Part shown: in pieces, positions 2,838 through 32,000 of the stretch | Position numbering within the stretch: position 1 is the first letter of the stretch | Layout of the letters: each line of letters begins with the position of its first letter | Assembly: GCA_942493095.1 (NCBI GenBank) | Contig: OW818675.1 | Location: forward strand, 960,001 to 992,000 | Source: Candidatus Electronema halotolerans | GTDB lineage: Bacteria; Desulfobacterota; Desulfobulbia; Desulfobulbales; Desulfobulbaceae | Direction: 5' to 3' | Length of the DNA: 32,000 bases | The notes under the pieces: model-generated | Told to the model about the DNA's origin: nothing | Database searches by the model: none | What the model saw: the letters and a program-made list of their open reading frames with translations, nothing else | Made by a program: the position numbers and the translations under genes

Positions 2838-2919
2838 GGAGCTGGAACGCTCGTTCGGGGAAATGTGCCGATCCGTTTCAACCTTCCATCGCGCCGCTGC
2901 TCTTGGCAGCCAAGACATC

Positions 2920-4017
2920 ATGAACAGAAATAAAAAGATTGAGCAGCTCCAGCAGCTGCTTCAACGACGCAAAATTGATGCGGTGCTGATCACCCAGCCG
3001 GAAAACCGCCGTTATCTGAGCGGCTACACCGCTGCTGATCACGGCATTCAGGAAAGCTCCGGGGTGCTGCTGATTCCGAAAAAAGGCGCGCCGTGGCTGC
3101 TTACAGATTCCCGCTTCACGCTGCAAGCTGAGGAGGAGGCGCAGGGCTTCACGGTTGAGCTGTACAAAAAAGGATTGTTCAAACTGCTGAAAAAGCTGCT
3201 GCCCGCCTTGGGGATACGGCGGCTGGCCTTTGAGAGTCATCATTTTCTCCACTCCGCTGTTGCGAGAATGGAGAACGTCTTGGGCAGCAAGACAGAGCTG
3301 CTGCCAGTGACAGATGTGGTCGAAGCAATGCGGCTGGTCAAGAGCGAGGAGGAAATCAGCCTGATTAAGGCATCTGTCCTGCGCAACGAGCAGGTTTTTC
3401 AACAAATTCATGGCCTGATCGCGCCGGGCATGACAGAAATCGACATTGCCCTGCATATCGAACGCATCATGCGGGAACAGGGCGCGGAACGGCCCAGCTT
3501 TGAGACCATTGTCGCTTTTGGCACGAACGCGGCCAAGCCGCACGCTGTGCCCTCAAAGCGGGTGCTGCTGGAAGGCGACCTTGTCCTGATCGACATGGGT
3601 TTGGTCCTGCAAGGCTATTGCTCGGACATGACCCGCACTTTTGTGGCTGGCAAGCCGGACAGCCTCTTTCTTGAACGGTTGCGGGTGGTACGCAAAGCCC
3701 AGCTTGCTGGCATCAAGGCCATCCGGGCTGGAGCAGTCTGCAAGGACGTGGATCAGGCCGCCCGCAAGGTGATTGCCGATGCTGGTTACGGCGACTTTTT
3801 CGGCCACAGCTTGGGGCACGGAGTCGGCTTGGCCGTGCATGAAGCCCCCAGCCTCAGCACCCGCAACCGGAAGAAATTGCAGGCTGGCATGATCGTCACC
3901 ATTGAGCCGGGCATTTATCTGCCCGACTGGGGCGGCATCCGGCTGGAAAACATGGCAGTTGTCCGCGAGGACGGCTGCGAGCTGCTCAACGAGGACTCAA
4001 CCGGGCTGGATTTGTAA
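2920..4017 (+). CDS. Xaa-Pro aminopeptidase / M24B family metallopeptidase
   Basis: Creatinase-like N-terminal domain (IDAVLITQPENRRYLSGY) and the M24 metal ligand pattern (DMG..., HSLGHGVGLAVHE, IEPGIY, ENM). The ATG at 2920 is chosen over the long upstream extension of the 2692 ORF. Confidence 0.85.
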   Translation: MNRNKKIEQLQQLLQRRKIDAVLITQPENRRYLSGYTAADHGIQESSGVLLIPKKGAPWLLTDSRFTLQAEEEAQGFTVELYKKGLFKLLKKLLPALGIRRLAFESHHFLHSAVARMENVLGSKTELLPVTDVVEAMRLVKSEEEISLIKASVLRNEQVFQQIHGLIAPGMTEIDIALHIERIMREQGAERPSFETIVAFGTNAAKPHAVPSKRVLLEGDLVLIDMGLVLQGYCSDMTRTFVAGKPDSLFLERLRVVRKAQLAGIKAIRAGAVCKDVDQAARKVIADAGYGDFFGHSLGHGVGLAVHEAPSLSTRNRKKLQAGMIVTIEPGIYLPDWGGIRLENMAVVREDGCELLNEDSTGLDL

Positions 4018-9626: not shown

Positions 9627-11834
9627 ATGAATCCTGAGCAGCGCAAACGCAAGCAGCGGCTGACCCGATATGTCATCGCCCTCTGTCTCCTGCTCATTCC
9701 CCTGCTGATCTGGCTCCAGCGCCGGCTGCTTCAGGGCGATCTGAACCTGCCCGTGTCGAGCACGGTCCTGATCTTCGCCCTGATCAACATCAACGGCCTG
9801 CTTCTCCTGCTCATGCTCTACCTGATTCTCCGCAATCTGGTGGAGCTGATCTTTGAACGCCGCAACCGGATCATTGGCTCACGCCTGCGCACCAAATTGG
9901 CTGCCGCCTTTGTCTCCCTGTCGATCATTCCCACTGCCGTGCTCTTCTTTTTCGCCCTTGGTTCAGTCTCCACCTCCATGGACTACTGGTTCAACACCAA
10001 TGTTGAAGAATCGCTCGAATCCTCCTTGAAATTGGCCCAAGAGCTGTTTCAGGAGACCGAGAACCGGGCTGGCAACATGGGCAGGCAGATCGGCCTGCTC
10101 TTGGAAAATGTCGATATTCATTTAAGTGACAACAAGAGTCTTCAGCAGCTCTTCAACAGCACCTTGGCCTTGGTCCCGACTGGCGCGCCGGATGCCTTGG
10201 TTCTGATCGACAGCAGCCTGCACGTCCGGGCCGCAGCCAAAGGCGAACGGCTGGCGGCAGTGCCGCTGCCAGATATTCCCACTGAGGCCCTCCGCCACTC
10301 GGTCAGCAGCGGCGAGCCGGAGGTTATCACCCGGCAGGTGAGCGCGGGCGAACTGGTTCAAGCCATAATCCCGGTGCAGATGAAAGACCGGAGCCGGGCA
10401 TTTCTTATCACCAGTCTGCTCATACCAGCGGCCAAGCTGACCCTGATGCAGTCGGTCTCGCAGGGCATCACCGGCTACAAACAACTCATTCTCCTCAAAG
10501 CCCCGATCAAGCTGAGTCTGATCCTCATGCTCCTGATCATCACCCTGCTGATTGTGTTCGGGGCGATCTGGTTCGGTTTTTACATTGCCCGCTCCATGAC
10601 CAGCTCAATCAACAAGCTGGCTGAAGCCACCCAGCGGGTTGCCAGCGGCGAACTGAACTTCACCATTGAAAAAGATTCAGATGATGAAATGGGGCTGCTG
10701 GTCGATTCCTTCAACTCCATGACCTCGGACCTGTTGGCCAGCAACCGCGAGCTGGCCGAAGCGCATCAGGCCTTGCAGCAGTCCAATCTCGTCTCTGAGC
10801 AGCGGCGGCGTTATCTGGAAACCATTCTCAGAAACGTGGCTGCTGGAGTTATTGCTATCAATGAGCAGCATCATGCCACAATCATCAATCCTTTTGCGGA
10901 AAAGTTGCTCCGCTTGGATTGCAGCCAGTTTCTCCATCGCGATTTCCGCGAAGTGCTGCCGCTTTCTCATGCTGCGGTGCTGGAACAATTTTTCAGCGAC
11001 CTGCGCGAATCAGGGCAACGTTCGATTGAACGGCATCTGAGTCTGACGGTGCGCAAAGGCGAGACCTATTCGCTCTTGGTCAACATCACCCGCCTCTTGG
11101 ATGACCGGGAGCGGCCCATCGGCTATGTCATTGTCTTTGACAACCTGACCAAGCTGGAAAAGGCCCAGCGGCTGGCGGCCTGGCAGGAGGTGGCCCGCCG
11201 CATCGCCCATGAGATCAAGAACCCGCTCACCCCGATTCAGCTCTCTGCCCAGCGGCTGCGCAAACGCTACTTGGAACGTATTGGTGATGACCAAGATATT
11301 TTTGACAAATGCACAGCCACGATCATCAGTCAGGTGGATGAGATCAAACGCTTGGTGACTGAGTTTTCCGATTTTGCCCGGATGCCGCGCATTAAAAAAC
11401 AGACCGCAAATATCGCCGCCTTAGCTGCCGACACACTGCTACTCTACCGCGAGGCGCACAAGCATATCGACTTTCAGTTCAAGCAGGAGGAAATTTCGCC
11501 TTTTGCCTTTGATCCGGTGCAGATCAGGCGGGTGCTGATCAATCTTTTGGACAACGGGGTCAGCGTGCTGGGCCACGGCGGCCAGATCAAGGTCCTGCTC
11601 CATAGACATGAGGCGCAGAAAACAATCAGCATCACGGTTAGTGACAACGGTCCAGGCATCCCGGAGGAGGTCAAGCGGCGGCTTTTTGAACCCTATTTTT
11701 CCACCCGCAAATCTGGCACCGGCCTTGGCCTGGCCATTGCAAACACCATTGTCGCAGAACACAACGGCAGCATCCGGGTGCAGGACAATGTCCCTTCCGG
11801 CACCACAGTGACTGTGGTGCTGCCTTTCGCATGA
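9627..11834 (+). CDS. NtrY-like sensor histidine kinase (TM-HAMP-PAS-HisKA-HATPase)
   Basis: N-terminal TM helices, HAMP (SINKLAEATQRVASGELNF), PAS, H-box HEIKNPLTPIQLSAQRL typical of NtrY, and N/G boxes (DNGPGIP, GTGLGLAI). Confidence 0.85.
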   Translation: MNPEQRKRKQRLTRYVIALCLLLIPLLIWLQRRLLQGDLNLPVSSTVLIFALININGLLLLLMLYLILRNLVELIFERRNRIIGSRLRTKLAAAFVSLSIIPTAVLFFFALGSVSTSMDYWFNTNVEESLESSLKLAQELFQETENRAGNMGRQIGLLLENVDIHLSDNKSLQQLFNSTLALVPTGAPDALVLIDSSLHVRAAAKGERLAAVPLPDIPTEALRHSVSSGEPEVITRQVSAGELVQAIIPVQMKDRSRAFLITSLLIPAAKLTLMQSVSQGITGYKQLILLKAPIKLSLILMLLIITLLIVFGAIWFGFYIARSMTSSINKLAEATQRVASGELNFTIEKDSDDEMGLLVDSFNSMTSDLLASNRELAEAHQALQQSNLVSEQRRRYLETILRNVAAGVIAINEQHHATIINPFAEKLLRLDCSQFLHRDFREVLPLSHAAVLEQFFSDLRESGQRSIERHLSLTVRKGETYSLLVNITRLLDDRERPIGYVIVFDNLTKLEKAQRLAAWQEVARRIAHEIKNPLTPIQLSAQRLRKRYLERIGDDQDIFDKCTATIISQVDEIKRLVTEFSDFARMPRIKKQTANIAALAADTLLLYREAHKHIDFQFKQEEISPFAFDPVQIRRVLINLLDNGVSVLGHGGQIKVLLHRHEAQKTISITVSDNGPGIPEEVKRRLFEPYFSTRKSGTGLGLAIANTIVAEHNGSIRVQDNVPSGTTVTVVLPFA

Positions 11835-15466: not shown

Positions 15467-16021
15467 CTACGGTAAGGACGAATTAGAACTGGCGCATTTT
15501 CTGCGCTGTTTATCAAGCAAGATTTTTCTTGCCGCTCTCTTGGGCAGGCGGAGCAGGAAGACAATCGGTCGTTCAATAAGCGAGATGGACGGCGACAGTT
15601 TTCCCAGCAGGAGATTGACTGTCCGCCACGTTCGGCTTTCGTAATGCGTCGTCCTGCCGTTTCGGGTTACTTTGCTGATGATGCCGAGGAAATCAGCCGC
15701 AGAAACGGGCGGGTCGCAGCGGTATCTGCGGTCGCTCTTGGTCAGCAGATGTTGCTTTCCGTCAAGCTGGATGCAACGAAGAAAGCGATGTGCTTTCAAT
15801 CTGCCGTTGACATGATAGACCGCAACATCGCCACAGCGGAGCGTATCCGCCTGTATTGGTTTGATGAAAATCAAGTCGCCCTCGCGGAGCAGCGGTTTCA
15901 TGCAGTGACCGGTGAGCGTGATTTCCACCGGCTCGCCCTTTTGCAGCAGCAGGATGATGATCTTGTAATAATCATGCTTTTTGAAAAACTCCTCCTGAAA
16001 GGTGCTGCCGGAATCTGTCAT
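15467..16021 (-). CDS. S24/S26-fold peptidase-like protein with Cys at the nucleophile position
   Basis: [13 protein letters not shown] aligns to the G-x-S-M-x-P-x-L-x-x-GD nucleophile motif of LexA/signal-peptidase-fold enzymes. GDVAVY...LKAHRF aligns to the GD(i/v)v.f...(K/H)R(v) general-base region. The start overlaps the kinase stop (ATGA). Confidence 0.6.
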
Positions 16022-16854
16022 ACCGTTTCAATATGTTCCGTGAGCAGGCGGGCTGCTGCCGTCGCATCGTTGTGGATAAGCTGAAAAGCATTCGCCTTTT
16101 TCACTACTTCGGCCATCTGCTCAATGCTTGCAACGGATTTTGCCCTGCCGATCTGGGCATTCATCAGGCGCAGCAGGGCTGCTGATTTCTTCATCGGTGC
16201 AAGAGAAGGCGGTTTGTCCGGGTCGTAGCGGACAAAGAAGATGCTGTGCAGCGGCGCAGGTTTGCCGTGTATCGCCTTTGGCACGGCAATCTGATGATCC
16301 GCACCAAAGCTGCGCACCGGCCAGGATGGAGCAAGGCGGACAATACCGGTCTCTTTGCAGGACACGGTTTTGAGAAAGGGATGAACAATCTGTCCGGCAT
16401 CCAGCAGGCCGACTTCATCGGTAAGATAAGCCCAACCGTGGTTTGCGATCAATTCAAGAGTGAGGGTTGATTTACCGTGACCGCTTTCGCCGAGCAGCAG
16501 GATTGCGCTGTTGTTTCTGCTGACCGCACCGGCATGAAGGGTGATCAGCTCTTGTTTGTCAATCTGGTTAATGGCGTGGCCGGAGACGATATTCTCCAGT
16601 GCCTTGCTCAGGAGGGCAGAGGGAACGGCGTGCAGCTCGCGGCCCCAGTCAAAGGCGATTTTCCCTTGTTTCCAGATGGAAAAGCAGTCGGGCTGATCAG
16701 CACTCGGCAGAACGGTTATTTGTGCTGCTGTCTTATCCGGCGGAGCAGGGCTGAGAAACTCCTGCCACATGTAATCGCAGAACTGGTTAAGTTCTGCGAG
16801 CGGGGTTTCAAGGCGGATGAGGGTTTTGGTGATGGAGTAGAAGCTCTCAGGCAT
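16018..16854 (-). CDS. HprK-related P-loop kinase (HPr kinase C-terminal-domain-like)
   Basis: LHAGAVSRNNSAILLLGESGHGKSTLTLELIANHGWAYLTDEVG matches HprK-related kinase A/B-type proteins. The start overlaps the radical-SAM stop by 8 nt. Confidence 0.75.
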   Translation of the reverse strand: MPESFYSITKTLIRLETPLAELNQFCDYMWQEFLSPAPPDKTAAQITVLPSADQPDCFSIWKQGKIAFDWGRELHAVPSALLSKALENIVSGHAINQIDKQELITLHAGAVSRNNSAILLLGESGHGKSTLTLELIANHGWAYLTDEVGLLDAGQIVHPFLKTVSCKETGIVRLAPSWPVRSFGADHQIAVPKAIHGKPAPLHSIFFVRYDPDKPPSLAPMKKSAALLRLMNAQIGRAKSVASIEQMAEVVKKANAFQLIHNDATAAARLLTEHIETV

Positions 16855-18259
16855 GGCTTTCCGCCTGCACTTCCTCCACCAAGCCTAATTTCTGGAAGGC
16901 GGCAAGCTGGCCGTAGATGTCGTCTTTGATGGTGTCAAATTCCACTTCGCAGACGTTGGCAATCTCTTGGGCGATTTGTTGGGCGGTGCGGTGGCCGTTG
17001 ATGAGATCCCAGATGGCCATCCCCATTGAATTTAATGCGTACCTTTTATCGTGATTACATAACAACCCTTCTTCTTTTAAATCTATCGTTGTTATGTTTG
17101 GACATCTCGTCATTACAGTACGTTGAGCAGAAGGAAGATCATTTTTACCGCATCTGTTATCATAAGGTATGTTTTTCATTTGAAATTCATTTTTATTTTT
17201 GATCATATATCTCAGAACGGCAGTAATTATTGTTTTGTTAAACAAACATAAATAATTAGCAGACAAATCGTTATTATATTCGTGAATACAGACACCTCCG
17301 CACAAAAAAATATATTGGCACTCCGAGCAGTGATCCCTGTATATGTTTTGAATATTGATGTTTTCTATTTTTTCTTTATCTATCCCGTTACGGGTGTTGC
17401 CAATCAAATATTTTGAGTGACTGACAAAACGATGACAGGGAAAGAAGTCTCCGTTAAAAGATACTGTTATTTTGTTTCTTCCAATACCGCATCTCGTAGC
17501 TTTCTTTTGAGAAAGAAAAGTATTTATTATACGTTGAACGTTATATATCGTGCTGTTTAAATTCCCCTTTTCTTTATACGAAAGAATAATACTATCAACT
17601 ATATCTAACAGTTGCTGTTGACCAACAGCATTACTATCATTAGTGGTTACAGGTGTTACTATTCCAAATACTACCATTTCATTATTTTGCAAGATTCCTA
17701 TATCAGAGTAATTCCTTAAAATATCGTAAGGTAAATCAGTGTTTGCTGTCAAAGTAACTCTAATTTGATACTTCACGTTGTATTTTTGCAATATTTTTAT
17801 ATTATTAACTATTTTGCTAAAACTCACACCCCCCTTCTTGTATCTTCTTTGAAGATCATGTGTCTGTTTTTTTCCGTCTAACGTAACTTGAATATGAACT
17901 TTGTTATCGTGACAAAACTTAGCTATTTCATCATCTATTAAAGTTCCATTAGTTATTATTCTAAATGATAAGTCATTTTTATGATCTATTTTACTTATTA
18001 ATCTATTGATTGTATATCGAATTTTAGAAAACTCAATTAATGGTTCTCCGCCAAAAAATGATACTTTTACACATCCACGATGTTTCTTCTCATAAATATC
18101 AATGAAGTTGTCAATATCGTTTTTAGATAACGATTTTTTTCTATTCGTATACTTATCACCAGCTTTCAGATAGCAGTAAGTGCATTGAAGATTACAAGAA
18201 CCGGTTATATCTATCTCGACATCTGATACATCTTCCAACATGCACTTAATCTCCGCCAT
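16847..18259 (-). CDS. radical SAM / SPASM-domain peptide maturase with a C-terminal PqqD (RRE) domain
   Basis: CNLQCTYCY is the CX3CX2C motif. SFFGGEPL is the GGE motif. The SPASM region is CGIGRNKITVSFNGDFFPC...CSECQYIFLCGGVC (CX2CX5CX3C). The C-terminal ITTIDLKEEGLLCNHDKRYALNSMGMAIWDLINGHRTAQQIAQEIANVCEVEFDTIKDDIYGQLAAFQKLGLVE is PqqD-like. An alternative ATG at 18241 has GGAG 9 nt upstream. Confidence 0.85.
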   Translation of the reverse strand: MAEIKCMLEDVSDVEIDITGSCNLQCTYCYLKAGDKYTNRKKSLSKNDIDNFIDIYEKKHRGCVKVSFFGGEPLIEFSKIRYTINRLISKIDHKNDLSFRIITNGTLIDDEIAKFCHDNKVHIQVTLDGKKQTHDLQRRYKKGGVSFSKIVNNIKILQKYNVKYQIRVTLTANTDLPYDILRNYSDIGILQNNEMVVFGIVTPVTTNDSNAVGQQQLLDIVDSIILSYKEKGNLNSTIYNVQRIINTFLSQKKATRCGIGRNKITVSFNGDFFPCHRFVSHSKYLIGNTRNGIDKEKIENINIQNIYRDHCSECQYIFLCGGVCIHEYNNDLSANYLCLFNKTIITAVLRYMIKNKNEFQMKNIPYDNRCGKNDLPSAQRTVMTRCPNITTIDLKEEGLLCNHDKRYALNSMGMAIWDLINGHRTAQQIAQEIANVCEVEFDTIKDDIYGQLAAFQKLGLVEEVQAESHA

Positions 18260-18422
18260 TATTACAGCAGCTTTGCCATGATGCCATATCGGAACACTCA
18301 GATACAGATTCACCGTTTAAATCTGTCAATTCGCATATATCTGGTTTAACATAATTCCCCTTTAAAACCTTCAACCTTCCCTCTTTAATCCCGTTTTTTC
18401 CTTTCTCATTCATATTTTCCAT
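18246..18422 (-). CDS. candidate RiPP precursor peptide (58 aa, Cys-rich C-terminus)
   Basis: MENMNEKGKNGIKEGRLKVLKGNYVKPDICELTDLNGESVSECSDMASWQSCCNNGGD. AGGAGGAG SD lies 4 nt upstream of the ATG at 18422. The stop overlaps or abuts the radical-SAM start. The gene shares the low-GC composition of the maturase. In-frame ATGs further upstream lack an SD. Confidence 0.65.
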   Translation of the reverse strand: MENMNEKGKNGIKEGRLKVLKGNYVKPDICELTDLNGESVSECSDMASWQSCCNNGGD

Positions 18423-18560
18423 GATCTCCTCCTGTTCATTCATTTCGCCAGCCATTATCGGCAATTAGATCCAACCCAATCAACCTTCATCACCATGCCA
18501 ACGAAGAAAGGCTCAAATCATCATGCAGCCTCAATCCGTTTCAGTCCGCTCAGATCAACT

Positions 18561-18958
18561 CTAAAAAAATCGGAAGCCCGCCTGCTCGAAATGATGATCA
18601 AAGGTCAGCGCAGTGGTGATCTGCATTTCCCTCATCACCACAAACGACAGACAGTCAACCAAGCCCCACGTTTTATCCTGATATCTGTTAAACAGGTTCA
18701 CTGCCTGCTTGAACAGAACAGGATTCATATAAATCAGCGTCATTTCGTCAGCTTCCTGAAAGGCGCGAATAAGCTGGCTGCATTGACGGCGGCGATGCGT
18801 GACAAAGCATTGCCCGTTTCCAGCAGGACAGCATCGGTCGTCACCAAAGGATAACCAGCGCACTGTTCCGCCAAGCTCAAGGCCCGCTTATGATAATTGT
18901 CGTTCTCGTTGATTAGGGCGATGATATACCCTGTATCAACAAACAAAGGCTCAAGCAT
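18561..18958 (-). pseudogene. vapC: PIN-domain VapC toxin, disrupted by one frameshift
   Basis: The N-terminal half (MLEPLFVDTGYIIAL...TTDAVLLETGNAL, ORF 18740-18958) and C-terminal half (NRYQDKTWGLVDCLSFVVMREMQITTALTFDHHFEQAGF, ORF 18561-18863) of one PIN domain lie in different frames. The shift maps to about 18770-18810. Confidence 0.75.
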
Positions 18959-19193
18959 TCTTCTCGCCGTTCAAGTAGGCATCAATGTTTTCAGAGAAGT
19001 CCGCAGGCCCGCTGATTTTAATCTCCTGCAACCGTGCCAGCAGGGAAGCCTTTGGCTTTGGCAGGGCAGCATCCTCGTCAATAATCACAATCACGCGCAC
19101 CGATTTGTCATCCCATGCCTGACGATACGCATCTGGAATAGTGACGGTCACTTTGCCGTCACGAGCAACCGCGTTCAGTTCAACGGCATTCAT
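18951..19193 (-). CDS. VapB-type antitoxin (small DNA-binding antitoxin upstream of vapC)
   Basis: An 80-aa ORF overlapping the vapC start by 8 nt, the typical TA architecture. The family assignment rests mainly on context. Confidence 0.5.
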   Translation of the reverse strand: MNAVELNAVARDGKVTVTIPDAYRQAWDDKSVRVIVIIDEDAALPKPKASLLARLQEIKISGPADFSENIDAYLNGEKNA

Positions 19194-19264
19194 AATCGTT
19201 CAGTTTCTTTTCTTGAGCGCGGCTAAAATATCTTGTGAAACTTCCAATCGCATTGTTTCATTCA

Positions 19265-20452
19265 TTATCTTCTTCCGATCACATACACATTGACTAATTT
19301 CAGCCAATACCTCGGATACGCCATTGCCAGCTTTCCAGCGGTGCTGACATCATACTTTCCTGCCATCCCCATCCACTCTTTCTCCGGCACAAAGGTGCGG
19401 AAAATATAAGCTGCTTTTGCGGCTGGACTCGGTTGCTGCCTCAAACTGACAAAATAACTCTTCAGTCTTTTCAAAAGAGGCATCCTGACTTTCTTAACAT
19501 ATACTTCTTCGCGCAAAAATGAAGAAAAAATCGCCTCCCTGTTCTTCAATGTCTTCTCAGCAAGAAACTGTTCTGGCACCGGTGCATCCAGCAGGATATG
19601 GGCATAACTCAAGCCTGTCATAACTTCCTTGCGCAGCTCAGGAACGACACATATTTGTTCTATTTTATGCCAATCAAGTGTTTTCTCATGCTTCCGCAGC
19701 AGTTCGTTGATGTCGCACAGTTCTCTGAGAACAACTCCCATATAATAAACATGCTTGAAAAAATGCGTACAAAGATGAATCAGCATCATTTCCTGTGTCA
19801 ATTTATGCTGATTACCGCTGACATTTACAGAACTTGCTAAAGCCTGCCGCGTGATCTCTCGAAATCTGTTGTCCTGAAAAAGTGACCTATGCACTTCAAT
19901 AGCTACTTTTTTGCATAATGGAGGAAGATGCAGACATGTTTCCGGCAGCTCGCCATGCGCTTGCGACTTTTTGACCGCATGAAGCGGTAAAGAGGATGTG
20001 TAACCAAAGTCCCTCAACTGATACCAATTCTCTTCCACATATTCCTGCTCCACCAGCAAATCAATATCGCACATTGAGCGAAGAGCAATATTCGGATACA
20101 GGCTTTGAATCAGTTCTATTCCTTTCAGCGGAATGACTTTGTTCGGCAGAATGCTGGCAATTTCCTTGAACGCTTCAAGCATCTTGGCATTTCTGAGTGC
20201 AGTGTCGTAATATTCAATTTCAGTGTCGTAATATTCAATTTGAAACCTTTTCAACAATTCTTTCGGCAGCAGATCAGTCAAATCATGCTGCCTGAAGGCG
20301 TAATAAATGAACTGACTGACCCCATGCGTGAAAGCCTTTTTCGCCACCGCCGACCAGTCCAAGCCGCTGCCTGCCAGCTCTTTCAGTGCGGCAATGTTGT
20401 CTTCCGCCAGATGCAGCCGGGCCGCATTGAAGATGAATGCGTCTTCCTTCAC
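19265..20452 (-). CDS. nucleotidyltransferase family protein (NTP_transf_5-like)
   Basis: RSMCDIDLLV, the surrounding pattern and the roughly 390-aa size match the uncharacterised nucleotidyltransferase family that co-occurs with PqqD and HprK-like genes. GTG start. GC is visibly lower than the flanks. Confidence 0.65.
   Translation of the reverse strand: MKEDAFIFNAARLHLAEDNIAALKELAGSGLDWSAVAKKAFTHGVSQFIYYAFRQHDLTDLLPKELLKRFQIEYYDTEIEYYDTALRNAKMLEAFKEIASILPNKVIPLKGIELIQSLYPNIALRSMCDIDLLVEQEYVEENWYQLRDFGYTSSLPLHAVKKSQAHGELPETCLHLPPLCKKVAIEVHRSLFQDNRFREITRQALASSVNVSGNQHKLTQEMMLIHLCTHFFKHVYYMGVVLRELCDINELLRKHEKTLDWHKIEQICVVPELRKEVMTGLSYAHILLDAPVPEQFLAEKTLKNREAIFSSFLREEVYVKKVRMPLLKRLKSYFVSLRQQPSPAAKAAYIFRTFVPEKEWMGMAGKYDVSTAGKLAMAYPRYWLKLVNVYVIGRR
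20200..20241. repeat. perfect 2 x 21-bp tandem duplication inside the nucleotidyltransferase gene
   Basis: cagtgtcgtaatattcaattt occurs at 20200-20220 and again at 20221-20241. It is in frame and duplicates EIEYYDT in the protein. Confidence 0.95.
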
Positions 20453-26969: not shown

Positions 26970-28545
26970 TTATACTGCGGCATCGGGGATAAAAGGACTT
27001 CCAAGGAAAGCATCTTTGATCGCTTCAAAAATGTTTCTTGAATTTTTACGGACCGTGGAGATATATCCCCGGATACAGGCGAATCGTTCTGCCCCCTCAA
27101 GTGTTCGGAAGCAGCCGGAAACCTTCTGCTTGACCTTGATCATCCGCACATCTCTTTCCGCCGCGTTGTTGTCGAACGGAACCCGGAAATCATACATGAA
27201 TGCGAGGGTCTCCGCCCTGTAATCACGCATCCGTGTCAGCAAATTGAGCGGCGGAGTCTTCTTCACCCGTCCTCGTTTTTTCTCCTTAGGGTACCTCGAA
27301 AAATACCGATTTTGCCGAAGGCGTGATCGAATAATCAGACATTTACAACGCAACAACTGCCAAAAATACCAATTTTTCGAGGTACCCCTTAGGCGGAGTG
27401 AACGGATTGTCCGCAAAACCCCGTCGGACGATTTCATCATACCGCCGCTCAAATTCTTCGATCTTCTCCGGCGTGAAGCCGTCCCGATCCGGCTTCAGCT
27501 TTTCAGCCGCGCCTTTTATTTCAAGCAGCAGCTCGGCCATCTCGCCGGCCCAAACTTGTCCGTACTGTTTTTCTATGAACTTGAGTTCCCGGAGATGATG
27601 CGCATTGCACAGCGCATGACCGCAGTTTTCATAGCTGAAGTACGATTTCCAATGATCATGCGTCGCTGTTCCTGTGAACTTTCCAAGGATTCCCGCTGCG
27701 TCCATCGCCTCTTTTCCCCGTTTTTCATGCACCGAATAAAGGGTGAGGCAGTTCGTCGAAGCGACATGCAGCCAGTGCAGCTTCCCTTTCACGCGGACTC
27801 CGCTTTCATCGGCATGTAACACATCGGTATTCATGAGCAGTTTTTCGACTGCTTCCGTTGAAGGACGCACGCATCCGCAAAGCTCTTCCGATGCCTTCAG
27901 CAGCGAACCCTCGGAGACGGAATGCCCGGTCAGGTCTTCGATAATCTGCGCAGCCCGTTCAAGCGGAATATGATGCTGGTTCGCGAAATATGCCGCCCAA
28001 GTTTTCACCCCCGTGCCGTAACGGATGCCCTGTCCGACGTTTTCCGGGAATTTGCCTCTGTTTTCCGTGCCGCAGCCGGGACAGATTTTTATTTCCGCTC
28101 GATGCGAGGTCACTTCAATCCGAATCGCCGGAATATCATAAACCTGCCGTTCCTCCTCTCCGACAGCGACGACATCCGCAAGCGACATTTTGCAAGCCGC
28201 GCATTCCTCGGATTTATACCTCTCCGTAGAATCCGGCGCCGCAGACCGCTCAAGAGTATGCCCTTGATGACCTGGCTGGCCGCCGTTCGGCTTCCTGCCG
28301 GACTCTCTCAGACTTTCCGTTCGCTTCGCTTTACCGTATCCATCGCTCGAAGGCGGTTTCCCGCTGTTCCGACTGTTTTTCGACAGCCGGGCCTGCAAAT
28401 CCTTCAATATCTCGGACTGCTTGGCTGACTGAGCGGCGAGGTTTTCAACCTGCGCAGTTATACTGCTAAACAGGGCGACGACCGCTTCTTCGCCTTCTGC
28501 GTATGCAGCACGGACTTCTTTTTCACTAGGAACACTGAAATTCAT
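26970..28545 (-). pseudogene. IS66-family transposase split by a 97-bp insertion
   Basis: ORFs 27343-28581 and 26970-27452 carry consecutive IS66 transposase regions (zinc-ribbon-like CAACK...CPGCG, HADESG, CNAHHLRE, then [24 protein letters not shown]). Removing 103 bp (element plus one repeat copy) joins ...PFTPPK to [12 protein letters not shown]... in frame. Confidence 0.85.
27289..27385. mobile_element. MITE-like 97-bp nonautonomous element
   Basis: It has perfect 15-bp terminal inverted repeats, GGTACCTCGAAAAAT and ATTTTTCGAGGTACC. These are flanked by the direct repeat CCTTAG (27283-27288 and 27386-27391). It has no coding capacity. Confidence 0.7.
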
Positions 28546-28560
28546 AACGGCAGCATAATC

Positions 28561-28609
28561 TTTACCTGTTGATTTTGTCAAGAGGCTTGGCGGATGCCTG
28601 AGTAGTTAC
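28561..28609. repeat. 49-bp IS66 end sequence, copy 1 (part of the IS)
   Basis: tttacctgttgattttgtcaagaggcttggcggatgcctgagtagttac is identical to 28878-28926. Confidence 0.9.
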
Positions 28610-28983: not shown

Positions 28984-29110
28984 ATTTAAAATCAGATTGT
29001 CTCTGCGGCTGCAGCAGATAATTTTAACAACTGGAACCAAGTTGAGGAGAGATGTTATGAATCAGAATTACAAGGAAAAATCAAAATGCATGGTATTGAA
29101 AGGAGAGAAA

Positions 29111-29611
29111 ATGAAAAGAAACATCTCGTATGTTTTTTCCGCTTGCTGCATATTCTTTTTTACAGCGTTGATTGCGCCTCTTGCTGATGCGAAATCAGAA
29201 ATTATTAGTGCTAAGGTTGTTGATTATGGAATTATTGAGCTTCAGACGACGGCATCTACTGAACAGCCTGATGATGTAATAATCAATCAATTAGCCACTT
29301 CTACAGAGAGAATACCTGCCAAGATCGGGACAAGTTTCGGAATCATTTTTAAAGTAGATGGTCCTCCTGATGGAGAATTTATCGACCTGACTGCAAATTG
29401 GCTATTTCAAAAAGATGGTGTCAAAAATCCTGAAAGTGGAGAATTTTTACATCAGGCTACAGTACCTTTTAAAGCTAATATCGGCAAGCTGTCTTTGCAA
29501 TATGCAACTTTTGACTCTGCGAATGACTTGGTTCCTGGCAATTGGGTAATTGAAATATGGCATCAAGAAAGAAAACTCTGTGAGAAAAAATTCGAAGTGT
29601 ATATGCCCTGA
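29111..29611 (+). CDS. secreted DUF3859-like protein
   Basis: Signal peptide MKRNISYVFSACCIFFFTALIAPLADA. The remainder (IPAKIGTSFGIIF...GNWVIEIWHQERKLCEKKFEVY) resembles DUF3859. AGGAGAGAAA SD. GC is low. The ATG at 29111 is chosen over the 28955 extension. Confidence 0.6.
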   Translation: MKRNISYVFSACCIFFFTALIAPLADAKSEIISAKVVDYGIIELQTTASTEQPDDVIINQLATSTERIPAKIGTSFGIIFKVDGPPDGEFIDLTANWLFQKDGVKNPESGEFLHQATVPFKANIGKLSLQYATFDSANDLVPGNWVIEIWHQERKLCEKKFEVYMP

Positions 29612-29689
29612 TGCTAAAAGTCGCGTCGCTCTTCGATGAACCGGATGGAATCTACTGATTGCCCTGTCTTGCAGGCGGCTTGTTGTGAA

Positions 29690-29720
29690 GGGTGCGCCCC
29701 GCGCACCCTGTTTTTTCTTT
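29690..29720 (+). terminator. rho-independent terminator after the DUF3859 gene
   Basis: GGGTGCGC ccc GCGCACCC is followed by TGTTTTTTCTTTTT. Confidence 0.75.
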
Positions 29721-29827
29721 TTCCATTCCATCCTCTCTTCCTAAAAAAACTGCTTGCCTTTTCACCTCTAATGCCATCCTACAGTAGAATTTCAACAGCA
29801 AAAAATGAACTCAGCTCTGCTAAAAGG

Positions 29828-29856
29828 TTGACACCTTATGCGGGGGTGGGTAATAA
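29828..29856 (+). promoter_or_regulatory. sigma-70-type promoter candidate for the small-peptide array
   Basis: TTGACA (29828-29833), a 17-nt spacer, then TAATAA (29851-29856), about 60 nt upstream of the ATG at 29919. Confidence 0.45.
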
Positions 29857-29918
29857 TTAATTGATTTCAGTGACGGGCGCAGCAATTCATCAATTGACCC
29901 TAAAAAAGAAGAAACATC

Positions 29919-30047
29919 ATGAAACGCAACACCAGCAGAAAGACAGACCGCAAGACTCTTGCCCGGAAGACCGACACGAAAGGGAAAAATTTTCCGGTCT
30001 CGATTCGCAGCGATATTAAAGCAGGAATAGCAATGGCCATTATATGA
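29919..30047 (+). CDS. small basic peptide, paralog 1 (42 aa)
   Basis: MKRNTSRKTDRKTLARKTDTKGKNFPVSIRSDIKAGIAMAII. The first 38 nt are identical to paralog 3. Not in the ORF track because it is under 60 aa. Confidence 0.55.
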   Translation: MKRNTSRKTDRKTLARKTDTKGKNFPVSIRSDIKAGIAMAII

Positions 30048-30170
30048 AAGAGAGGTTCCGGTTCAGTTTCATTGCCAACTGAGCCGGATTCAGGAAAAGA
30101 GTCAGTTTATACTGAACAATACGTCCGGTCAGAACACCGAAAACAGTCAATCCATAAAGGGAGAATCGTT

Positions 30171-30293
30171 ATGAAAGATCGCACCAAAAAGACAGACCGC
30201 AAGACCGTTGCAGCGCAGAAGAACGAGAATAAAAACCGAAAGGGCCTTCGTACCGGTGTGAAAGCAGGAAAAATTGGCTGGCAGCCCGTTTAA
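30171..30293 (+). CDS. small basic peptide, paralog 2 (40 aa)
   Basis: MKDRTKKTDRKTVAAQKNENKNRKGLRTGVKAGKIGWQPV. AGGGAG SD lies 7 nt upstream. Leader differences from paralog 3 are mostly synonymous. Confidence 0.65.
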   Translation: MKDRTKKTDRKTVAAQKNENKNRKGLRTGVKAGKIGWQPV

Positions 30294-30295
30294 AC

Positions 30296-31781
30296 GTAAG
30301 CGATCACAGGGTACCGCTCAGACCCAGCTTAAATCCGGCATCTGTCCTCTGAAATAGCAGCGCATGGCCTCGGTGAGCACCTCGAAAGTGGATTTTCCCC
30401 GAAGCAGGCATGTCTGCCGGAGGGAAAGGATTCGTTCAACCCAGCGGTTTCCCTTGTCGCTGTCAGTGCCCTGACTCCGTTTGCGCCACAGCACGCCGAA
30501 GCGGAGCATCCGTTCCGCTGGATTATTTGTCGGCTCTACGCCTTCTTCGAGCAAGAAAGTGAACAACGCCTCCATTTCCTTGTCAATATGACGGACAAAC
30601 CTCCCCGCATCACTGTCGCAATCGCGCCAGCGTAGGATAAGTCGGCAGAGCCGGGCATAAAATGCGGACCATTCACCTTTGGTCGGCGGGTCTTTCGCCA
30701 TGCGGCAGAGCCGCCGCAGTTCCGCAGCGGCCCATTTGCCGCAGGCGGCCAGTTCAGGGTCAGCGCGCTCCGCAAGGCCGTCTGCCCGGCGGATAAGATG
30801 CGCGAGGCAAGTCTGCCGCTTGCCGACCCATTTTTGGTACACGTTGTATCCGTCGCTGATGAGAATACCGTTCCAAGCACCGATCAGTTCTTCAAAGGCT
30901 TCCTTAGAGCGTTTCGGATGAATCATGAAGAACGCGGCCTGCCGGTTCGCCATAACCCATAACCAGCGCAGCCTGCCGCCAGTTTTCCACGTTGTTTCAT
31001 CAACATGTCCGATATCCCCGCTTGTGACGGCAGCCCGGACGGCCTCATAGTGCGGCGCGACAGCCGCCGAAGCCCGGTCAATGATCTTCTGCACCGCCCC
31101 GGCGCTGATAGGAACGCCGAGCACGGAACGGATGAATTTCCGCACAGTTCCCCGGCTGCTGCCGTCCATGCCGCTCAGTTCGGCAACCAGCGCGGTGAAC
31201 CGCGCCCCGAAACCGGTTCTGAATTCATCGGGAACACAGCCTCTGACGGTTTTGCCGCAGGCGGCGCATTCCCCTTTATAAAGAAGGAAATGCCTGACCT
31301 GCATCACGATTTCCGGCAGTTCAATATGCTGATGCGTATAATATGACCGTATGTTTTTGAATTTGCCGCAACCGCAGGAGCAGGCGGAAGGATACATTTT
31401 TTGCGTTTCTGTCGGCGGCATCAGCTCCTGACGATATCCACGCCGCTTTTTCCGGGGCTTCCCCGCCTGATCTCTCTGCCGTTTTTCTGTAAACGGAGAG
31501 TCGGAAGAAGGCGGCCTGTTCGAGTTCGAGGAATCTTCGCCGAGTTTCGCCTCAAGCTCTTCGACCCGTTTTCTCAGCCGCGTTACCTCAGCGATCAAAA
31601 AAGACAGCAGCTTCCGCACCGCAGGAGGTGTAGCGGCAAGGTCTTCCTCGCTTATCTCAAAATTTTCACGATGGAACGGGGCGGTCACAGCTTTCTCCTG
31701 CGGAAAAAATTACTGCTCACAATTTATCCAGTTGCGATGCCAAGCGCCAGTGTTTTTTAGAGACACCCTGTGATCAGTTAC
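30296..31781 (-). mobile_element. intact IS66-family insertion sequence (single ORF) with 8-bp target duplication
   Basis: IRs are GTAAGCGATCACAGGGT (30296-) and ACCCTGTGATCAGTTAC (-31781), matching at 15/17. They are flanked by GTTTAAAC at 30288-30295 and 31782-31789. Confidence 0.9.
30318..31688 (-). CDS. IS66-family transposase
   Basis: N-terminal coiled coil (RKRVEELEAKL), Cys clusters (CSCGCGKF, CAACGK), HVDETTW, CLAHLIRR and TNNPAERMLR motifs. GTG start with AGGAGAAAG SD. Confidence 0.9.
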   Translation of the reverse strand: MTAPFHRENFEISEEDLAATPPAVRKLLSFLIAEVTRLRKRVEELEAKLGEDSSNSNRPPSSDSPFTEKRQRDQAGKPRKKRRGYRQELMPPTETQKMYPSACSCGCGKFKNIRSYYTHQHIELPEIVMQVRHFLLYKGECAACGKTVRGCVPDEFRTGFGARFTALVAELSGMDGSSRGTVRKFIRSVLGVPISAGAVQKIIDRASAAVAPHYEAVRAAVTSGDIGHVDETTWKTGGRLRWLWVMANRQAAFFMIHPKRSKEAFEELIGAWNGILISDGYNVYQKWVGKRQTCLAHLIRRADGLAERADPELAACGKWAAAELRRLCRMAKDPPTKGEWSAFYARLCRLILRWRDCDSDAGRFVRHIDKEMEALFTFLLEEGVEPTNNPAERMLRFGVLWRKRSQGTDSDKGNRWVERILSLRQTCLLRGKSTFEVLTEAMRCYFRGQMPDLSWV

Positions 31782-31862
31782 GTTTAAACTCTCGCTCTTT
31801 TTCTCCTTGTGTCGGCTCTGCTCCGGCACAGGGCAACACAAACTCTGTTCATAAGGAACACT

Positions 31863-32000
31863 ATGAAACGCAACACCAGCAGAAAGACAGACCGCAAGAC
31901 CGTTGCAGCTCAGAAAAACAACAAAAATCGAAAAGGACTTACGACTGGGGTAAAAGCAGGTCGTTGGCCCCTCTTTATTCCTGTTTCCTTCGCTGGCCCT
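31863..32000 (+). CDS. small basic peptide, paralog 3 (partial, runs off window)
   Basis: MKRNTSRKTDRKTVAAQKNNKNRKGLTTGVKAGRWPLFIPVSFAGP... AAGGAA SD. No stop occurs before the window end. Confidence 0.6.
   Translation, partial: MKRNTSRKTDRKTVAAQKNNKNRKGLTTGVKAGRWPLFIPVSFAGP

Follow-up and report, generated by a model that had tools for sequence, protein, structure and literature searches.

An Array of Small Genes in a Cable Bacterium That Are Most Likely Precursors of Secreted, Modified Peptides

Three tiny paralogous genes in the cable bacterium Candidatus Electronema halotolerans encode peptides of 42, 40, and 49 aa that share a basic leader of roughly 33 aa ending in (V/I)KAG, followed by short tails unrelated to one another. 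[quoted passage not shown] The genes lie at the end of the window, the 32,000-nucleotide stretch of DNA that was analyzed (GCA_942493095.1, contig OW818675.1, positions 960,001 to 992,000). The initial annotation described the array from the sequence alone, and what it saw there is confirmed. All three open reading frames (ORFs) exist where they were placed.

Not every detail of the first description held. Of the 2,082 bases assigned to the array, 1,486 belong to an IS66-family insertion sequence (IS) between the second and third genes (par2 and par3), which had been missed. L001, an IS-free metagenome contig that is 99.3-99.5% identical to the window, lacks the element, carries a single copy of its target site, and shows the intact array. 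The par2 stop codon lies inside the target duplication, so par2 is not truncated by the insertion. The description of the tails as hydrophobic holds only in part, since many family tails are polar, for example ALRADAL, ASIAGN, and QAM. The first gene (par1) belongs to a distinct subtype, and its tail is conserved across genera rather than hypervariable. For par2 versus par3, from KTDRK to VKAG, there are 10 synonymous codon differences, 1 replacement, and 1 codon indel, where 9, 2, and 1 had been given; the difference depends only on where the indel is placed. The features of the locus are collected in the table.

Table. Features at the right-hand end of the window and their supporting observations.
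Position	Strand	Feature	Observations
29689..29718	+	Intrinsic-terminator-like hairpin plus T-run	Ends the upstream DUF3859 gene and marks the 5' boundary of the peptide locus; 9-bp stem with 7 GC pairs, followed by GTTTTTTCTT
29828..29857	+	Sigma-70-like promoter candidate upstream of par1	TTGACA-18-AATAAT, 11 of 12 matches; a consensus match only, the region holding 2 such sites against 1.3 expected by chance
29919..30047	+	par1, subtype B precursor, 42 aa	MKRNTSRKTDRKTLARKTDTKGKNFPVSIRSDIKAG-IAMAII; leader ends ...IRSDIKAG; tail identical in the window and in L001, L002, L004, and L005 (Electronema and Electrothrix)
30054..30091	+	Stable RNA hairpin between par1 and par2	dG -20.6 kcal/mol, z -3.76; 0 of 200 shuffles fold as well; no T-run follows, so it may act as a stabilizer or processing site rather than a canonical terminator
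30171..30293	+	par2, subtype A precursor, 40 aa	...TGVKAG-KIGWQPV; preceded by Shine-Dalgarno-like GGGAG; identical to GCAAIG_04590 of Ca. Electronema halotolerans
30288..30295	.	Left copy of the 8-bp target-site duplication	GTTTAAAC
30296..31781	-	IS66-family insertion sequence, 1,486 bp	17-bp terminal inverted repeats GTAAGCGATCACAGGGT and ACCCTGTGATCAGTTAC; not part of the peptide system
30318..31688	-	Transposase ORF of the element, 456 aa	Pfam DDE_Tnp_IS66 (E 8e-35), DUF6444, zf-IS66
31782..31789	.	Right copy of the target-site duplication	GTTTAAAC
31863..32000	+	par3, subtype A precursor, cut by the window end	Full gene in L001 is 49 aa plus a stop, ...TGVKAG-RWPLFIPVSFAGPGGN; preceded by Shine-Dalgarno-like AAGGAA

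The family comprises 21 distinct genes, all from Ca. Electronema and Ca. Electrothrix, and none matches a Pfam or NCBIfam model. Across 12 leaders of the main type, summed pS is 0.464 and pN is 0.087, a ratio of 0.19, and codon positions 1, 2, and 3 are variable in 7, 11, and 27 of 33 columns, which shows that the leader is under purifying selection. The leader ends in KAG in 18 of the 21 genes and in KVG in 3, and conservation stops exactly there. Position -4 is V or I in all 21 leaders, while the next hydrophobic residue (F, L, or I) is at -8 rather than the -7 usual for substrates of C39 peptidases, and the rest of the leader is polybasic. Tails are 2-16 aa, with a median of 7. As an example of the contrast between the two parts, two paralogs about 1 kb apart in L002, the E. 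aestuarii locus, differ at 2 of 99 leader bases but at 6 of the 24 bases of tail plus stop codon.

The initial annotation proposed RiPP or secreted-peptide precursors with a small-residue cleavage motif and with processing or export genes beyond position 32000, naming a C39-peptidase ABC transporter as the thing to look for. That interpretation is supported, though by related loci (designated L002 to L013), since the contig of the window could not be extended and neither the transporter nor the full enzyme gene has been seen in the window's own genome. Two outcomes that had been set in advance as grounds for rejection did not occur. The par3 gene stops at 49 aa instead of continuing into a large protein, and no homolog is a fragment of a larger protein, the 21 genes being complete ORFs of 36-49 aa except for the window's own copy of par3. 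In L007-L009 and L010-L013, peptide genes lie directly beside an ABC protein (717-720 aa), a 191-196-aa protein, and a Peptidase_C39-ABC (926-934 aa). The C39 motifs QTSAMDCGPASL, THFVVVW, and IMDPGTG are intact, and the catalytic Gln, Cys, His, and Asp are retained. However, the E. aestuarii locus shows no exporter within 10 kb.

The peptide genes also flank a gene for a 741-aa glutamine-dependent asparagine-synthetase-type (AsnB-type) enzyme, which is adjacent in the window's locus as seen in L001, in L002, in L003, and in L005/L006. In L001, where only the last 97 codons of the enzyme gene are seen, its 3' end starts 66 nt after the par3 stop in convergent orientation. Subtype C peptide genes end 20-61 nt before the start of the enzyme gene on the same strand, in three species. 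L005 and L010/L013 overlap, which joins enzyme, peptides, and exporter into one locus. The enzyme scores 383.8 bits on the asparagine synthase equivalog model TIGR01536 (cut-off 267), matches PF00733 (E 2.6e-62) and GATase_7 (E 5e-46), starts with MCGF (containing the Cys2 nucleophile of the N-terminal glutaminase), and carries the SGGxDS pyrophosphatase motif as LSGGIDS. In L007, however, there are exporter and peptides but no AsnB-type gene within 10 kb upstream or about 3 kb downstream of the peptide, so the enzyme may not be obligatory.

The enzyme has a C-terminal domain of roughly 150 aa that was not matched by Pfam or NCBIfam models, apart from weak PaaA-like_N and HTH hits, and that may be similar to a RiPP recognition element (RRE). 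The domain is carried by 67 representatives. About 15 of these are full-length proteins (705-769 aa) with the domain at the C-terminus, and all 22 of the longer hits scanned have an Asn_synthase domain. The AF2 model (pLDDT 90.4) predicts beta-strands followed by three helices. Its best full-domain matches to RRE structures are 8t19_A (TM-score normalized to the target, TMt, 0.58) and 5v1v_A, TbiB1 (TMt 0.56), and hhalign against a PqqD domain gives E 0.059. However, the RRE assignment is not statistically significant (the Foldseek E is above 1, and there is no Pfam PqqD hit), and the top Foldseek hits are to GdmN (E 0.017-0.3) and not to RREs.

Relatives outside the cable bacteria extend the picture. 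A non-cable relative (L017/L018) has the enzyme with the same C-terminal extension at 51% identity, followed by five tandem small ORFs ending ...(R/K/H)AG-Q plus 4-14 more variable residues and then by the same ABC at 50% identity. The system is therefore not a curiosity of one clade. In L019, the enzyme lies inside a YcaO/nitroreductase cluster, whereas two other non-cable loci with the same enzyme family (L015 and L016) show no obvious peptide or exporter in 5-6 kb. One locus with the cable-bacteria peptides adds a glutaminyl cyclase (Glu_cyclase_2, E 2e-93), the gene for which directly follows the peptide with tail QAM. Its first 170 aa are 50% identical to the transporter-associated 191-aa protein.

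The best explanation, held with moderate confidence, is that the three ORFs are precursor genes of a peptide family specific to cable bacteria, each with a very short product region. That the precursors are translated is shown by the selection pattern, while the remaining steps, including any modification, cleavage, and export, are inferred from gene linkage, catalytic residues, and precedent. In this view, the conserved leader, above all its C-terminal segment ...G(F/L)xTG(V/I)KAG, would dock on the predicted winged-helix (possibly RRE-like) domain of the amidotransferase. The enzyme would then adenylate a carboxylate of the tail, most simply the C-terminal alpha-carboxylate, which is the one chemical group that all the unrelated tails share, and convert it to an amide, or further. 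A heterodimer-like exporter would recognize the double-glycine-type site (hydrophobic at -4, Ala at -2, Gly at -1), cut after KAG, and export the tail; it would consist of an ABC protein with an inactive C39-like N-domain, the single-pass membrane protein of 191-196 aa, and an ABC protein with an active C39 peptidase. Tails that begin with Gln could be cyclized to pyroglutamate by the glutaminyl cyclase, which is fused to a paralog of the transporter's small membrane protein, an inference that rests on one locus. It should be kept in mind that the leader is atypical for C39 substrates, lacking the usual amphipathic -7/-12/-15 hydrophobic pattern, and that subtype C tails of only 2 aa (FS) are hard to see as products. 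The products would be small, possibly end-capped peptides, one of them conserved (IAMAII) and many hypervariable between paralogs and strains, a pattern that fits signaling or recognition peptides or narrow-spectrum antagonists.

An alternative that remains possible, although less likely, is that the peptides are exported and leader-cleaved but otherwise unmodified, like class II bacteriocin, microcin, or pheromone precursors, and that the neighboring gene is simply an asparagine synthetase that shares inherited synteny. The enzyme does pass TIGR01536, L007 has peptides and exporter without it in the 13 kb seen, and L015 and L016 show it without visible peptides. Also, all cable-bacteria loci are related by descent, so their synteny is not independent evidence. 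Against this, the orthologous enzyme in L017/L018 is again followed directly by precursor-like ORFs and the orthologous ABC, L019 places the enzyme in a YcaO RiPP-type cluster, peptide genes end just upstream of the enzyme gene in three species, and a winged-helix extension of this size is not a feature of housekeeping AsnB.

It is unlikely that the enzyme instead works as a lactam-forming cyclase, like a lasso cyclase or beta-lactam synthetase, joining a tail carboxylate to an amine to make small cyclic peptides. There is partial similarity to the lasso cyclase model NF033535 (E 1e-62), several tails contain Asp or Glu (ALRADAL, RLIIDHY, EFKIDHL, QFEVSSW), and lactamization occurs in the asparagine synthetase (AS) family (PMC13060819). 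However, the NF033535 score is 212.5 bits against a cut-off of 525, and the glutaminase Cys2 and GATase domains are conserved across the family (17 of 22 members, the other 5 being N-terminally truncated fragments), which points to ammonia transfer. No B2-type leader protease was found in any of the annotated loci, and many tails lack Asp, Glu, or Lys (IAMAII, AVSFGSY, ASIAGN), so no common cyclization chemistry is possible. Similarly doubtful is the idea that the peptides are intracellular polybasic proteins that function uncut, for example by binding nucleic acid or the ribosome or as regulators, with the transporter serving other substrates. The leader is indeed extremely basic, lacks a Sec signal and the usual acidic or amphipathic GG-leader character, and is the conserved part, as the active part of a functional small protein would be. 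Yet the sharp boundary at KAG between strong purifying selection and unrelated sequence is not expected for a protein that functions as a whole, linkage to a catalytically intact C39 exporter recurs in two locus types, and the L017 relatives have non-basic leaders but keep the ...(R/K/H)AG boundary. Type I toxins or small membrane proteins are not indicated either, since a hydrophobic segment long enough to span a membrane needs about 18 aa or more, while the tails are mostly 6-9 aa and often polar and the leader is hydrophilic. Genes on the opposite strand (small hydrophobic, type I toxin-like ORFs of 31-46 aa, rich in F, L, and V, opposite each leader, such as 29900-30040 on the minus strand, with terminator-like minus-strand hairpins inside the leader DNA) or a conserved RNA can be all but dismissed, since variation is concentrated at plus-frame third codon positions, the antisense ORFs differ in start, length, and end between paralogs and are the expected by-product of Lys/Arg-rich coding, and no Rfam family reached its gathering score (one weak match, ftsZ-DE, 21.6 bits against 72.2, E 0.47, lies upstream at 29673-29708).

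A bolder hypothesis, improbable on present evidence but not excluded, is that cable bacteria and at least one unrelated lineage make a new class of ribosomal peptides of 3-9 residues that are cut out by a C39 exporter, capped with a C-terminal amide by an RRE-bearing AS-type enzyme, and in some cases capped with an N-terminal pyroglutamate by an exporter-tethered glutaminyl cyclase. This would be the same end-capping logic as that of animal neuropeptides such as TRH. The peptides, one conserved and many strain-specific, would serve as intercellular signals or kin-recognition tags along or between the multicellular filaments.

Cable bacteria are uncultured, centimeter-long multicellular filaments in which nothing is known about peptide-based communication or antagonism, and a lineage-wide family of putatively exported mini-peptides gives a concrete molecular handle that mass spectrometry can test. 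For natural-product biochemistry, the linked enzyme with its fused leader-binding-like domain is an uncharacterized branch of the AS-like RiPP enzymes, of which a 2026 preprint counts about 300 unexplored candidates of this general kind. If it amidates many different C-termini under leader guidance, it would be a useful promiscuous peptide-amidating biocatalyst. AS-like enzymes that amidate or nitrilate RiPP C-termini include TsrC of thiostrepton, ScdTA, and PesC of nitrilobacillin, in which adenylation of the peptide's C-terminal carboxylate with ATP is followed by transfer of glutamine-derived ammonia (PMC13060819). As in those systems, an AS-family enzyme with a glutaminase domain is encoded in a precursor-peptide cluster, but here no thiopeptide, MNIO, or other class-defining enzymes are present, the enzyme carries the additional C-terminal domain, and its putative substrates have diverse C-terminal residues (Y, N, W, L, F, I, V, and others) rather than a fixed Asn. 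Lasso peptide systems combine an AsnB-like cyclase, an RRE protein (B1), and small precursors; here too an AS-family enzyme occurs with small precursors, and its modeled extension, possibly RRE-like, superposes on the lasso RRE TbiB1. They differ in having a B2 protease and a core of about 14 aa or more with an Asp or Glu acceptor at position 7-9, whereas the enzyme here retains the glutaminase Cys and the tails are too short and lack a fixed acceptor.

Double-glycine-type leader peptides processed by peptidase-containing ABC transporters, such as ComC/ComAB, colicin V/CvaB, and the LahT and PCAT1 substrates, share the conserved leader ending in two small residues, the hydrophobic residue at -4, and the placement of several precursor paralogs beside a C39-ABC exporter. 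Their leader is a short amphipathic helix rather than a polybasic stretch of about 33 aa, and here the exported part would be only 2-16 aa. The transporter scores far below every curated model (TIGR03796, 162-164 bits against 853; TIGR01193, 141-147 against 524) and comes with a second ABC that carries a Cys-less C39-like domain and with the novel membrane protein of 191-196 aa. The NHLP/Nif11 systems with paired NHLM exporters (TIGR03796/TIGR03797) also combine many paralogous precursors, with a long conserved leader and variable cores, and one C39-ABC with one ABC that lacks an active peptidase. However, the peptides do not match NHLP or Nif11 leader models, the ABC proteins score 95-164 bits against cut-offs of 709-853, no HlyD-type protein of normal size is present, and the modifying enzyme is different. 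Finally, C-terminal oligopeptide signals are cut from small precursors, as with Phr, PapR, AimP, and ComS in Firmicutes and PatS, with the C39-ABC HetC, in filamentous cyanobacteria. Although there is no Sec signal here, no receptor (RRNPP-type or other) was identified nearby, and a signaling function is only a hypothesis, the comparison rests on a precursor of 36-49 aa whose last 3-9 residues would be the active molecule, with several variants per genome in a multicellular filamentous bacterium.

Three small plus-strand ORFs (par1, par2 and par3) lie between positions 29919 and 32000, and all of them begin with a Lys/Arg-rich segment that ends in (V/I)KAG, after which they share nothing. The observation made in the initial annotation, an array of three paralogous small ORFs with a conserved basic leader, is therefore confirmed. 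However, the initial annotation overlooked that most of this interval is an insertion sequence of the IS66 family, which has 17-bp terminal inverted repeats and is flanked by an 8-bp target duplication, GTTTAAAC. A 2,021-bp metagenome contig (L001), which is 99.3-99.5% identical to the window, carries the same locus without the insertion and shows that the ancestral array is par1, par2 and par3 within about 600 bp. In L001, par3 is a complete ORF and does not run into a large protein; a continuation into one had been set beforehand as part of what would count against the precursor reading. An exact-protein look-up of par1 and par2 found only this contig, so the surroundings of the array beyond it are known from related loci. 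The coordinates of all features are collected in the table.

Positions of the peptide genes, their neighbors and other features in the window and in related loci
Sequence	Position	Strand	Feature
Window	15467-20452	minus	Second, unrelated RiPP-like cluster in a low-GC island (31-46% GC, against about 57% elsewhere)
Window	15467-16021	minus	Peptidase_S24-like ORF of this cluster
Window	16018-16854	minus	HPr-kinase-C-like ORF of this cluster (weak hit)
Window	16847-18313	minus	488-aa radical-SAM protein of this cluster, with a C-terminal PqqD domain
Window	18246-18464	minus	72-aa ORF of this cluster with a Cys-rich C-terminus (...SECSDMASWQSCCNNGGD)
Window	19265-20452	minus	NTP_transf_5 protein of this cluster
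Window	27343-28581	minus	Second IS66-family transposase ORF (412 aa; DDE_Tnp_IS66, E 1.4e-32)
Window	29673-29708		Weak Rfam match, ftsZ-DE (E 0.47, below its gathering score)
Window	29689-29718		Terminator-like hairpin that closes the upstream DUF3859 gene
Window	29828-29857		TTGACA-18-AATAAT site preceding par1
Window	29919-30047	plus	par1, 42 aa, tail IAMAII
Window	30054-30091		Stable hairpin between par1 and par2 (dG -20.6 kcal/mol, z -3.76)
Window	30171-30293	plus	par2, 40 aa, tail KIGWQPV
Window	30196-30214 and 31891-31909	minus	Terminator-like hairpins in the leader-coding DNA of par2 and par3 (GCTGCAACGGTCTTGCGGT followed by a T-run)
Window	30296-31781		IS66-family element; its 456-aa transposase is on the minus strand (DDE_Tnp_IS66, E 8e-35)
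Window	31863 to window end	plus	par3, cut by the window end; 49 aa in L001, tail RWPLFIPVSFAGPGGN
L002; L010; L005	6968-7297, 10159-10655, 11517-14106; 511-1039; 9475-9678 and contig end		Mobile and addiction elements in the peptide loci
L003	3411-5628		AsnB-type gene called as two ORFs (489 and 245 aa)
L007	10255-11502, and 6483-7058		Glutaminyl cyclase fused to a 170-aa N-terminal membrane module, and the small ORF to which that module is related
L007	11503-11682		Decayed family member, ...MKRNISRKMGRN followed by a stop
L017 (also L018)	10275-11816 (2402-3943)		Five tandem small ORFs between the enzyme gene and the ABC gene
L019	1-10235		Cluster of a YcaO protein, a nitroreductase, a FAD-dependent enzyme and an ABC-2 transporter, with the enzyme at its end

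The second IS66-family transposase ORF in the window is not a copy of the element in the array, because blastn finds no similarity between them. No Rfam family reached its gathering score in 29000-32000, the only match being the weak one to ftsZ-DE upstream of the array. The hairpins on the minus strand of the leader-coding DNA are probably a by-product of Lys/Arg-rich coding, although they could also stop antisense transcription.

The ORFs are real genes. A profile search of 5.8 billion proteins found 18 relatives, and every one that carries a source name comes from cable bacteria (Ca. Electronema halotolerans, Ca. Electrothrix aestuarii and other Electrothrix species). The par2 peptide is identical to GCAAIG_04590 of Ca. 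Electronema halotolerans, and a further paralog is GCAAIG_04605 (P0005). A scan of genome contigs with the peptide alignment, which used only an N-terminal pattern, returned one locus (L004), and a DNA-pattern scan of metagenomes also returned one (L014). An HMM scan of the six-frame translations of all fetched loci raised the count to 21 distinct genes. Over 12 leaders of the main type, the Nei-Gojobori sums give a pS of 0.464 and a pN of 0.087, a ratio of 0.19, and codon positions 1, 2 and 3 are variable in 7, 11 and 27 of 33 columns. The comparison of par2 with par3 shows 10 synonymous codon differences, 1 replacement and 1 codon indel, which confirms in substance the 9 synonymous differences, 2 amino-acid changes and one codon indel counted in the initial annotation. 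Conservation ends abruptly at K(A/V)G. For example, two paralogs 1 kb apart in E. aestuarii differ at 2 of 99 leader bases but at 6 of the 24 bases of tail plus stop codon (ALRADAL versus GLRADSR).

The family falls into three subtypes. Subtype A, to which par2 and par3 belong, has a leader ending in ...TGVKAG followed by an unrelated, hypervariable tail. Subtype B, represented in the window by par1, has the leader end ...FPV(A/S)IRSDIKAG followed by IAMAII, and this tail is identical in Electronema and three Electrothrix loci. Subtype C has no member in the window and includes ...GIKVG-FS, ...GVKAG-VSAGSF and ...GIKAG-FTLMSGGAY; its genes lie 20-61 nt upstream of the asparagine-synthetase-type (AsnB-type) enzyme gene described next, on the same strand. 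Over 23 tails, the length is 2-16 aa with a median of 7, and 18 of them are 6-9 aa.

The window's own upstream genes are housekeeping genes (ilvC, efp, ftsK) plus IS elements. In L001, a convergent gene ends 66 nt after the par3 stop, and its last 97 residues align almost residue for residue with the C-terminus of a 741-aa protein in E. aestuarii. That protein is an asparagine-synthetase-type, glutamine-hydrolysing amidotransferase (TIGR01536, 383.8 bits against a cut-off of 267). It starts with MCGF, which retains the Cys2 nucleophile, carries LSGGIDS and has a roughly 150-aa C-terminal extension with no Pfam match. Family peptide genes flank this enzyme gene in every cable-bacteria locus that contains it, namely the window/L001, the E. 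aestuarii locus L002, L003 from the MAG GCA_976560315.1, and L005/L006. The division of the gene into two ORFs in L003 points to a frameshift, a stop or an assembly error, and there it is followed by a MacB/FtsX-type permease and a 420-aa ORF of unknown function.

A second type of locus (L007-L009 and L010-L013) places peptide genes beside three transporter genes. These encode an ABC protein of 717-720 aa, an unannotated single-pass membrane protein of 191-196 aa and a 926-934-aa ABC protein with an N-terminal Peptidase_C39 domain. The C39 domain keeps the catalytic Gln and Cys (QTSAMDCGPASL), His (THFVVVW) and Asp (IMDPGTG). The end of L005 overlaps the start of L010 (142 nt, 99.3% identity), and L005 and L013 are separated only by an IS, so that enzyme, peptides and exporter form one locus in that Electrothrix. 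The exporter was not seen in the window's own genome, whose contig could not be extended. The peptide loci are peppered with mobile and addiction elements, including ParE/Phd, HicA and a TumA-like antitoxin, a PIN-like fragment, a group II intron reverse transcriptase and IS elements, one of which splits L005 from L013. Assemblies tend to break at the repeated leader sequences.

In L007, the peptide with the tail QAM is followed by a glutaminyl cyclase gene (Glu_cyclase_2, E 2e-93). The first 170 residues of that protein form a single-pass membrane module that is a 50%-identical paralog of the small protein encoded between the two ABC transporter genes, which suggests a periplasmic cyclase tethered to the exporter. 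The decayed family member just downstream of the cyclase gene still carries the conserved 5' region shared by active copies.

The link between the enzyme and the peptides was examined further with the C-terminal extension. Word-indexed protein searches with this domain returned only short cable-bacteria fragments, but an exhaustive HMM search of 1.84 billion representatives found 67 proteins. About 15 of these are full-length (705-769 aa) with the extension at the C-terminus, and all 22 of the longer hits scanned have an Asn_synthase domain; 17 also have the GATase domains, and 5 of the 22 are N-terminally truncated. Four non-cable contexts could be fetched. In L017/L018, from the MAG GCA_039028975.1, the enzyme (51% identical) is followed on the same strand by five small ORFs of 51-76 aa, and then by the ABC ortholog at 50% identity. 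Each ORF has ...PG.xAK..(V/I/L)(R/K/H)AG, then Q, then 4-14 more variable residues (NYPWPSISF, RQTGVNLKTFFG, YDLGYIFNGAGGPPA, PSLDETFGA and VTFPF). In L019, the enzyme sits in a YcaO/nitroreductase/ABC2 cluster, a typical azoline-type RiPP setting, in which no precursor was identified. The short contigs L015 and L016 show no obvious peptide. The association of enzyme, precursors and ABC thus recurs outside cable bacteria, with a non-homologous leader body but the same hydrophobic-basic-Ala-Gly boundary. All cable-bacteria loci are related by descent, so the strongest independent support is the single non-cable relative L017/L018.

With a 4-sequence alignment, the AF2 model of the extension had a pLDDT of 39.5 and was discarded, but with a 52-sequence alignment the extension is predicted confidently (pLDDT 90.4) to fold into beta-strands followed by three helices. 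Foldseek finds no significant PDB match for this model, and its top hits are to GdmN (E 0.017-0.3). The best full-domain matches to small proteins are two bona fide RiPP recognition elements (RREs), 8t19_A (TMt 0.58) and TbiB1 5v1v_A (TMt 0.56). A PDB sequence-profile search gave only non-significant wHTH and PqqD hits (E 0.2-1.5), and hhalign against the PqqD domain of the radical-SAM protein in this same window gives an E of 0.059, in the expected register. An RRE-like identity is plausible on this weak evidence but not established.

The interpretation given in the initial annotation, that these are RiPP or secreted-peptide precursors, is supported, in the main by related loci. That the ORFs are translated genes under leader-specific purifying selection is demonstrated by the analysis, whereas the steps that would follow translation are inferred. 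From linkage and motifs, the C39-ABC would cut after K-A-G (hydrophobic at -4, small residues at -2 and -1) and export the tail. From linkage, domain content and precedent, the leader would dock on the enzyme's C-terminal domain before export, and the synthetase domain would adenylate a tail carboxylate and transfer glutamine-derived ammonia. The only carboxylate common to all the unrelated tails is the C-terminal one, and the narrow distribution of tail lengths would fit a leader-anchored enzyme that reaches a fixed distance. The published AS-like enzymes TsrC, ScdTA and PesC do exactly this chemistry on RiPP C-termini (PMC13060819). However, the enzyme may be dispensable, since L007 lacks it within 10 kb upstream and about 3 kb downstream of the peptide. 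Tails that begin with Gln may be cyclised to pyroglutamate by the exporter-tethered cyclase, which rests on one locus plus the invariant Q in L017. The products might be signals, recognition tags or antagonists.

Other readings of the genes were considered and rejected. The family does not consist of lasso peptides, since the enzyme is not a lasso cyclase (NF033535, 212 bits against 525), no B2-type leader protease was found in any of the annotated loci, and the tails are short (median 7 aa) with many lacking Asp or Glu. The peptides are not N-terminal fragments of a larger protein, because every family member found is a complete 36-49-aa ORF apart from the window's own copy of par3, which is complete in L001. 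An Asn-codon attenuator leader for the asparagine synthetase gene was also rejected, as in the window the peptides converge on that gene, their tails vary and there is no run of Asn codons. The F/L-rich antisense ORFs are ruled out as the real genes by the codon-position pattern.

Literature searches on cable bacteria in combination with asparagine synthase, C39 or RiPP found nothing relevant. The parts that were not matched in any of the libraries or literature that could be searched are the polybasic leader family, the very short tails, the divergent two-ABC exporter with its small membrane partner, and the AS-type enzyme with a fused, predicted winged-helix domain. The general logic, by comparison, is already known from other systems: a leader plus a core, a double-glycine-type site, a PCAT and an AS-like tailoring enzyme. 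The genes described here vary this logic in the parts just named and are a candidate new RiPP family, so far seen in cable bacteria and at least one other lineage.
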